From Octopus vulgaris (lineage: Eukaryota): a stretch of 64,000 bases of DNA. The stretch is taken from contig OX597832.1 of assembly GCA_951406725.2 (NCBI GenBank), forward strand, positions 32,674,001 through 32,738,000, in the 5' to 3' direction. How positions within the stretch are numbered: position 1 is the stretch's first letter; each line of letters begins with the position of its first letter. Below, in pieces: positions 9,701 to 11,334 of this stretch. Both the position numbers and the translations under genes were made by a program. Under the pieces are notes generated by a model, which saw only the letters and a program-made list of their open reading frames with translations, ran no database searches and was not told where the DNA came from.

Positions 9701-9976
9701 AAGAAGCAGAAATAAGTAGAGAAAGAAAGAAAAAAGCGTGTTGAGTTCAGCGTTCCAGCATCGCCTAGTACATACATGTACACGCACACAGACACACAGA
9801 CACAGACACAGACACACACACACACACACACACACACACACACACACACACACACACACACACACATATATATATATATATATATATATATATATATATA
9901 TATATATATATATATATATATTTAGTGTAGGAAGAAATGGAGCTGAACGAAGATTTAACAAAATTCCTTTTTATTA

Positions 9977-10060
9977 TTTTCTACATATGTTTCAAAGGCT
10001 GCAAAGTCCCTAATTCGGATTGAATAAGGAGTCCATTTTGCAACCTTCTCTTCAGGAAAA
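9977..10060 (-). ncRNA. Type I hammerhead ribozyme, canonical core
   Basis: TTTTC-CTGAAGA-GAAGGTTGCAAA...TTTGCAGCCTTT-GAAAC-ATAT-GTA-GAAAA: 5-bp stem I, 12-bp stem II (two G-U pairs), palindromic stem III ACATATGT, GUA cleavage triplet. Confidence 0.85.
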
Positions 10061-10875
10061 TCCAGGAACTTAATTCTCCAACAAAATGCACAGCGAGCTT
10101 TTCGACAAACGCTCACGAGGAGCCCATGGAATAAATGGCACAAACTGTCTATCACTATGCGTTGACGCCAGGCTGGGTGAACGATAGAGAGGGGGTGTCA
10201 ACAATGGTCGTGGCAGGATACAGTGACATCCCTGACAGTAGTTCTAGATAACTAGCAGTTCTTACACTAACAGGGGAGTGATATTCCCTTACAAATTTAA
10301 TTCAACATTTTTATCCATTTTCTTAGGAAATCAAGAAAATGGATAAAAATTTTGAATTAAATTTGTAAGGGGATATCACACCCCTGTTAGTGTAAGAACT
10401 GCTAGTTATCTAGAACTGCTGTCAGGGATGTCACTGTATCCTGCCATGACCATTGTTGACACCCCCTCTCTATCAACTGGTTACAGACGAACACACAGAC
10501 ACAGTCTTTTCTGTTGCTTGACCATTAATATCTGCTATATCTCTTTCCCTTGATGCCTTCTAAACACACTGTCACACACACAGACGCACACACACATACA
10601 TGAAAACAATTTCTCACACTCAAACACTCTTAAAACAATTCAAATATTAACACCAGTCATACAGAATACATTCACACTCTTTGATTTTCCTGTACTCCCC
10701 TTCTGTTAACCGGACTTTGACCTTGAATTATCTCAACGGACTTTCTTGTCGGCTTTCACCCAGCCTGGCGTCAACGCATAGTGATAGACAGTTTGTGCCA
10801 TTTATTCCATGGGCTCCTCGTGAGCGTTTGTCGAAAAGCTTGCTGTGCATTTTGTTGGAGAATTAAGTTCCTGGA

Positions 10876-10959
10876 TTTTCCTGAAGGGAAGGCTGCAAAA
10901 TGGACTCCTTATTCAATCCGAATTAGGGACTTTGCAGCCTTTGAAACATATGTAGAAAA
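10876..10959 (+). ncRNA. Type I hammerhead ribozyme, mirror copy with A9G core change
   Basis: TTTTC-CTGAAGG-GAAGGCTGCAAA...TTTGCAGCCTTT-GAAAC-ATAT-GTA-GAAAA. Confidence 0.75.
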
Positions 10960-11334
10960 TAATAAAAAGGAATTTTGTTAAATCTTCGTTCAGCTCCATT
11001 TCTTCCTACACTAAATATATAAAACTTCAAATTTCCGCACTAAGGCACGGATTTTAGGCCCCATGGTCATAACCTCAACCTTGCTTTTCTGTTGTGATTT
11101 TTGCTACCCAAGTGTCGGTTATCATTTGAATAATCCGTAATAAGATAATTCATTTATCTACTTCAATATATATATATATATATATATATATATATATATA
11201 TATATATATATATATGTGTGTGTGTGTGTATATATGCAGTCTGTGATGGGTGAGCTGTAGTTGTAACATGGTTTTAATATTGCGCGTGTACATTATTTGT
11301 TTTAGATTTTGTCGACTGCCTATTATACAATGGT

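Follow-up and report, generated by a model that had tools for sequence, protein, structure and literature searches.

Penelope-like elements (PLEs) provide the closest described counterparts to the octopus locus reported here. Craig et al. 2021 describe PLE insertions with an inverted, 5'-truncated copy beside the 5' end, a tail of 30-40 bp that is often confined to one end, and (TA)n targets (PMC8557442). Head-to-head structures, self-priming and deletions at microhomologies are reported by Arkhipova et al. 2013 (PMC3846280). The formation of Penelope-like inverted structures is still debated in these two accounts. For PAc (Poseidon, from Anolis), Frangieh et al. 2024 placed two internal starts of reverse transcription, which define the tail, and reported AT-rich cutting, on both strands, with ribozyme cleavage dispensable in vitro (PMC11167929). 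The hammerhead ribozymes of PLEs, as described in PMC4209133, have a long helix II, a short helix I and a palindromic helix III, with a highly conserved G10.1-C11.1 pair and a known U3-A8 variant. According to the same source monomers do not cleave, metazoan PLE hammerheads require a second sense copy for cutting, and dual motifs in Schistosoma lie ~100-700 bp apart on opposite strands. Changes in the core abolish or strongly reduce hammerhead cleavage (PMC2837043). A literature search returned no study of hammerhead-bearing Penelope elements in cephalopods; the supplements of PMC4209133 and PMC8557442 may list related families. A term search of the Octopus vulgaris repeat paper gave no match to 'hammerhead' or 'palindrom'.

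The window, i.e. the whole stretch of DNA analysed, comprises 64,000 nucleotides of Octopus vulgaris (GenBank assembly GCA_951406725.2, contig OX597832.1, positions 32,674,001 to 32,738,000, forward strand). Within it, a mirrored segment is, with good confidence, a single, fairly recent and dead Penelope-like insertion, in which two 5'-truncated 3' ends stand head to head in (TA)n, the mirror having likely been made during insertion. In window coordinates, the locus is composed as follows.

9812-9921: left target flank, (AC)n at 9812-9866 and then (TA)n at 9867-9921.
9921-10181, minus strand: outer part of the left arm, an element 3' end pointing left; tail-less, it stops at an AT motif internal to the element, where it directly abuts the (TA)n target.
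9977-10060, minus strand: left hammerhead motif, type I, with the CUGAAGA...GAAA core intact; predicted cut after GUA at 9982.
10181-10183, minus strand: left-arm deletion junction, with 280 bp missing and one untemplated base.
10183-10335, minus strand: inner part of the left arm, including the loop, which belongs to the arm's own 5' sequence, and three further bases.
10322-10335: inversion centre, an 8-nt loop (10325-10332) closed by a 3-bp CTT/AAG microhomology.
10333-11015, plus strand: right arm in element sense, pointing right; undeleted, it contains the family segment 10475-10754.
10785-10824, plus strand: 5'-end hot spot of other family copies, marked by contig joints and a depth step; candidate RNA start or strong stop.
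10876-10959, plus strand: right hammerhead motif, type I, whose core carries an A9-to-G change at 10887 that is private to this arm; cleavage is predicted to follow GUA at 10954.
11022-11165, plus strand: one-sided tail, 144 nt of family sequence past the inverted repeat.
11166-11229: right target flank, (AT)n at 11166-11215 and then (GT)n.

Comparison of the sequence with itself aligns outer arms of 261 bp each (9921-10181 and 10755-11015) and inner arms of 142 bp each (10183-10324 and 10333-10474). Over 403 paired positions the arms differ by eight substitutions (2.0%), six being transitions and two transversions; a single untemplated base is at 10182 in the left arm, and the 280-bp segment 10475-10754 is confined to the right arm. 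The palindrome that the initial annotation had drawn at 9921-11015 is real in its inverted arms, its mostly transitional differences, its 8-nt loop and its one-arm segment, and an outward-facing hammerhead is indeed located near each end, with predicted cut sites 61 nt inside the arm ends. The extent given then holds for the arms but not for the right end, where family sequence goes on to 11165 as a one-sided tail. Likewise, the TATATA flanks described on both sides are a true (TA)n target on the left only, whereas on the right the 7 nt at 11015-11021 form a motif of the element itself and the real (TA)n begins at 11166. The whole insertion spans 9921-11165, between a TA run of 55 nt ending at 9921 and one of 50 nt starting at 11166. 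Target-site duplication is unreadable, since the insertion sits within the TA run. The centre junction occurs once in the 64-kb window, and self-comparison found no tandem same-direction copy of the element there.

Both hammerhead motifs are comprised of a short stem I (5-6 bp in the left motif), a 12-bp stem II, GAAA, a palindromic CAUAUG stem III and GUA. The left core, CUGAAGA, is intact; the right core reads CUGAAGG, and this A9G change is private to the right arm, the family base at 10887 being A at essentially all depth in four of four runs of public sequencing data (described below). A relaxed hammerhead descriptor gave four matches in 64 kb, all of them in the focal palindrome and in a second palindrome of the same window, and none in 30 simulated windows. 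No hammerhead model of Rfam reached gathering score anywhere in the window, nor did one appear among the 39 E-value matches in 9500-11500; the Rfam miRNA-type matches are generic hairpin scores, below gathering. For the hammerhead monomer, the active fold is predicted to lie ~3 kcal/mol above the minimum-energy fold.

The motifs agree with the metazoan PLE hammerheads of PMC4209133 in their short helix I, long helix II and small palindromic helix III and in the occurrence of opposite-strand pairs some hundred bases apart; the U3-A8 variant is present in the second palindrome of the window. They differ from the published ones in a helix II of 12 bp with a further inner stem (7-8 bp in print), in a G-U pair that closes stem II of both motifs in place of G10.1-C11.1, in the A9G of the right copy, and in a spacing of ~830 nt, slightly greater than the range quoted. 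Most likely, the outward-facing hammerheads are simply a marker borne by each element 3' end.

Logan contigs of four runs, X1, X3 and X5 being DNA and X2 being RNA by guess only, were aligned to 9921-11165. The runs represent four studies and two coded organisms, and 20 of 24 listed runs contain part of this segment. Summed contig depth is qualitative and gives no copy number. In X1 it is 5e2-1.5e3 in the vicinity of the centre and reaches 2-3e5 towards the ribozyme, a rise of more than two orders of magnitude. All four runs, including X2, show a gradient in this direction, and in all three DNA runs it exceeds two orders of magnitude. Such a centre-to-ribozyme gradient is the pattern given by 5' truncation; the family is high-copy, steeply 3'-biased and heavily 5'-truncated. 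X1 depth is 5e4-2e5 across 11013-11165, and those 144 nt therefore belong to the family. The 280-bp segment 10475-10754 is likewise matched by family contigs in four of four runs. The bin holding the deletion junction, 10173-10214, has zero cover in X3 and X2, which is uninformative, as contigs drop rare variants.

Near the centre, X1 record 1 (depth 675) aligns at 10250-10335 and X5 record 26 at 10242-10334, both with unaligned letters beyond. Judging direction from the record coordinates, both follow the left arm through the loop and then leave the focal sequence; the loop is therefore native upstream sequence of the left arm. None of the 32 listed of 3250 contig pieces bridges the focal centre and so confirms this locus itself in reads.

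Strand-switch (head-to-head) joints occur at many other positions of the family. Among the rows listed, 15 of 29 in one table (table 5) and 12 of 14 in another (table 5c) yielded at least 21 distinct joints, eight in X1, one in X3 and 12 in X5; joint sides were 20-32 nt (table 5) at 85% likeness, and two same-arm skips (table 5) as well as one same-arm back-jump and three duplicates (table 5c) were left out of the count. In 16 of the 21 listed joints the longer arm begins at 10785-10824, where depth also steps up. Centres within 6 nt of perfect number six of the 21, against 1.8 expected under independent pairing (P ~0.005), or five of 20 once a near-duplicate is removed (P ~0.016). At a 16-nt tolerance the symmetry excess among listed joints is not significant (7/21, P 0.08; 6/20, P 0.18), and 14 of the 21 are clearly asymmetric, with an offset of >16 nt.

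The hot spot at 10785-10824 is located ~60-95 nt upstream of the hammerhead core and may mark where the RNA of a dominant short form begins. In a single joint, 9981 to 10957 (X1, depth 20), an arm starts exactly at the base that follows the predicted cut site (window 10954-10957); as one of 21 listed joints it is within chance and was rejected as evidence of cleavage.

An assembly or library fold-back artefact would also produce a mirrored sequence, and a focal centre left unbridged among the listed contigs of four runs is what it would leave. However, the arms are set apart by their eight substitutions, by the 280-bp segment and by the 144-nt tail, these extra sequences are authentic family sequence, and the mirror stops exactly at the element boundary rather than entering the flanks. 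Comparable inversion joints are moreover found in contigs of three independent DNA runs, and an artefact is very unlikely.

Family contigs also allow some of the differences between the arms to be polarised. The contig rows listed reveal the family state for four of the eight mismatches: at 10043 and 10285 the private base is in the left arm, at 10380 and 10887 in the right. Minority family states at 10391, 10781 and 10782 are common to both arms, and both therefore come from one source lineage; each has since drifted by ~1%. Metagenome contigs were scanned for exact matches to the ribozyme-end motif with zero loci returned, and no longer family member was obtained. The tail contains a 25-codon ATG frame at 11063-11140, whose ATGG context recurs in the loose ends of variant family contigs; this frame is possibly the start of a parent ORF or an upstream exon.

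According to the initial annotation, the palindrome could be a self-inhibited non-autonomous element, one that is copied into RNA and inserted again in full while its antisense arm keeps the ribozyme from acting, and transcription in either direction would give a hairpin of ~400 bp. The hairpin is borne out by fold prediction, given a read-through transcript: the whole unit is predicted to form 400 arm-arm pairs on the plus strand and 397 on the minus strand, in which antisense pairs with 83 of the 84 bases of the ribozyme. This predicted burial of the ribozyme is in keeping with a mobile palindrome, as is the movement of pLTR-bounded units in trans (PMC3846280), and, with 32 of 3250 contig pieces listed, a low-copy subfamily carrying the focal centre would be compatible with the contig data. 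Against it, the listed family contigs that reach the focal centre end at 10334/10335 and do not enter the right arm, the family's 21 listed inversion joints lie elsewhere at varied and mutually different positions, and the centre junction is unique in the window. Each arm carries private mutations, the right ribozyme core is altered, and the inverted repeats do not delimit both element ends, family sequence extending 144 nt past the right one. The same anatomy is also found in an unrelated family. Furthermore, metazoan PLE hammerheads require a second sense copy for cutting (PMC4209133), and antisense inhibition would thus be superfluous for silencing a single one. An outward transcript initiated inside an arm would contain no antisense copy. 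Re-insertion of the palindrome as a self-inhibited unit is thus very unlikely, and the mirror arrangement is likely built anew at each insertion.

The unrelated family is represented by the second head-to-head palindrome of the window.

39282-40304: second palindrome, flanked on either side by TA runs, with a 30-nt tail confined to the left, a 30-nt loop, and a gap of ~115 bp in the right (tail-less) arm, near 40190.
39407-39376, minus strand, and 40218-40249, plus strand: outward-facing hammerheads with U3-A8 core and CCGG stem III.

This palindrome has nine mismatches in 416 aligned positions and a (CTT)n tract in both arms, and its sequence is unrelated to that of the focal family. It is a natural control, displaying the same anatomy in another family. 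By composition only, its loop resembles the sense strand of the tail-less arm. In both palindromes (n=2) the internal deletion lies in the arm without a tail, which also appears to own the loop. Splicing was considered as a cause of the one-arm gaps and rejected on inspection of the sequence, the gap ends being other than GT-AG on either strand of either palindrome.

Deep ends, a shallow interior and variable centres, together with TA flanks, would likewise be in keeping with a foldback or MITE-type DNA element, having long terminal inverted repeats, variable internal deletions and an incidental hammerhead-like motif. Such an element is difficult to reconcile with family sequence continuing 144 nt past the inverted repeat on one side, with native sequence at the centre that runs on unfolded, or with a second, unrelated family of the same layout carrying a different published PLE hammerhead variant. 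A DNA element of this type is highly improbable.

Membership of the focal family among Penelope-like elements, the most likely assignment, is drawn from non-coding marks. No Pfam match to a reverse transcriptase or GIY-YIG gene was found in 220 stop-to-stop frames of the window (>=55 aa, low-complexity frames left out), and no credible coding frame of >=40 aa was identified in the focal unit. The marks include a sense-oriented hammerhead close to the 3' end of the element, a feature of endonuclease-bearing PLEs; an inverted 5'-truncated head-to-head partner, present in the focal palindrome and in the 21 other listed joints; a tail at one end only, although of 144 nt here as against 30 nt in the second palindrome; and an AT-rich, (TA)n target. 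With the 3' bias of the family added, these support well the Penelope-like origin that had been proposed for the locus.

The architecture of the insertion is already published, and the focal locus is a further instance of it with modest departures, namely the long tail, the long helix II and the G-U closing pair. With the Penelope-like inverted-repeat insertions described in PMC8557442 and PMC3846280 it shares the inverted 5'-truncated partner placed head to head, the one-end tail, a (TA)n target that hides any duplication, and microhomology at junctions together with deletions. It differs from them in that the focal copy is without coding sequence or tandem pLTR and in that its tail is several times the published length (144 nt vs 30-40 nt). 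Two internal start points defining the tail, an AT-rich target, and cutting and extension of both strands are likenesses to PAc (PMC11167929), whereas the focal start points would be 144 nt apart and lie at target-matching AT motifs within the element. Animal non-LTR retrozymes (PMC7229834; bioRxiv 10.64898/2026.07.22.740005) are also non-coding and PLE-related and carry a type I hammerhead, but are described as same-direction tandem units, while the inverted arrangement of the focal copies precludes release of a monomer. Identity as a non-LTR retrozyme was rejected, as the focal copies are inverted and no tandem copy is present in the window. L1 twin-priming and fold-back inversions (Nam et al. 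2023, PMC10191854) are alike in that the inversion arises in target-primed insertion, but there parts of one copy or its flank are rearranged, whereas the focal arms both duplicate the same 3' end.

A Penelope-like insertion of this kind could have been produced as follows. An enzyme of the element, supplied in trans, would cut the TA run, and each of the two target ends would then serve as primer for reverse transcription, starting from AT-rich sites that lie within the RNA at a distance of 144 nt from each other. On the left, priming would take place at the motif equivalent to 11015-11021 and on the right 144 nt further out, the latter giving rise to the one-sided tail. The left cDNA would run inward and halt at 10335, where its 3' AAG could pair with CTT 8 nt back. 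Such snap-back of the left cDNA on itself is modestly favoured over its annealing to the second cDNA at the tip; the preference is only modest because near-perfect centres are in excess at 6 nt but not at 16 nt, and because 14 of the 21 listed joints are asymmetric. Fill-in and joining to the right cDNA would yield the palindrome, and the 280-bp gap could come from a template skip or a later deletion. After insertion, the arms would have drifted by the ~1% noted above and the right ribozyme would have lost A9. A model of snap-back plus second priming predicts a loop-bearing arm without a tail, which is seen in the focal palindrome and apparently in the second one.

If read through from host transcription, the palindrome might in addition be a source of long dsRNA that is hyper-edited or diced, a consequence compatible with Penelope-like insertion. 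The predicted duplex of ~400 bp would suit this role. Porath et al. (PMC5625713) report that a palindromic repeat is heavily edited in frog, that Penelope of lizard has >40,000 edited sites, and that in octopus the share of loci able to form dsRNA is unusually high. On the other hand, frames of >=55 aa across the window revealed no host exon. No RNA run is on record among those listed as containing part of the segment, which carries no weight as to expression. Among the places listed, A>G/T>C changes account for 4 of 11 in X2, whose label as RNA is a guess, compared with 3-4 of 8-13 in the DNA runs, which is no excess, and the X2 variant 9961 A>G (49%) is also present in DNA contigs of X1 and X5. 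Contigs show neither strand nor transcript ends. The differences between the arms are without an A-to-G cluster, with one sure sense A-to-G (10887), and were rejected as a signature of editing. A dsRNA role for this palindrome is therefore possible but doubtful.

The single focal locus, most likely a dead insertion of a described architecture, matters little by itself. A high-copy family with many junctions permits counting of the side on which loop, tail and deletion fall and of microhomology, and such counts separate snap-back, twin priming and antisense self-priming. The window holds two palindromes of unrelated families per 64 kb. If the density genome-wide matches that of the window, palindromes would be a candidate dsRNA source behind heavy A-to-I editing. 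A broader proposition, speculative and itself unlikely, is that Penelope-built palindromes generally arise when the first cDNA snaps back and the opposite target end primes a second one, that they are a main ready-made source of long near-perfect dsRNA in the genome, and that they may explain much of the octopus hyper-editing signal.

Other repeats are present in the window. A mariner-type transposase fragment at 744-1076 on the minus strand (Pfam Transposase_1, E 1.1e-6) is the only above-cutoff match in the 220 frames; four further Pfam matches are all below cutoff. Three old copies of one repeat, 70-75% alike, are located at 11567-12103, 16731-17065 and 19165-19704. Their frames look to us like Tc1/mariner transposase ends, with no relevant Pfam match. 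A short dispersed repeat, presumably SINE-like, occurs at 4097-4535, 15461-15715, 35955-36408, 38517-38753, 45950-46186 and 56784-57051, its copies being 72-78% alike.
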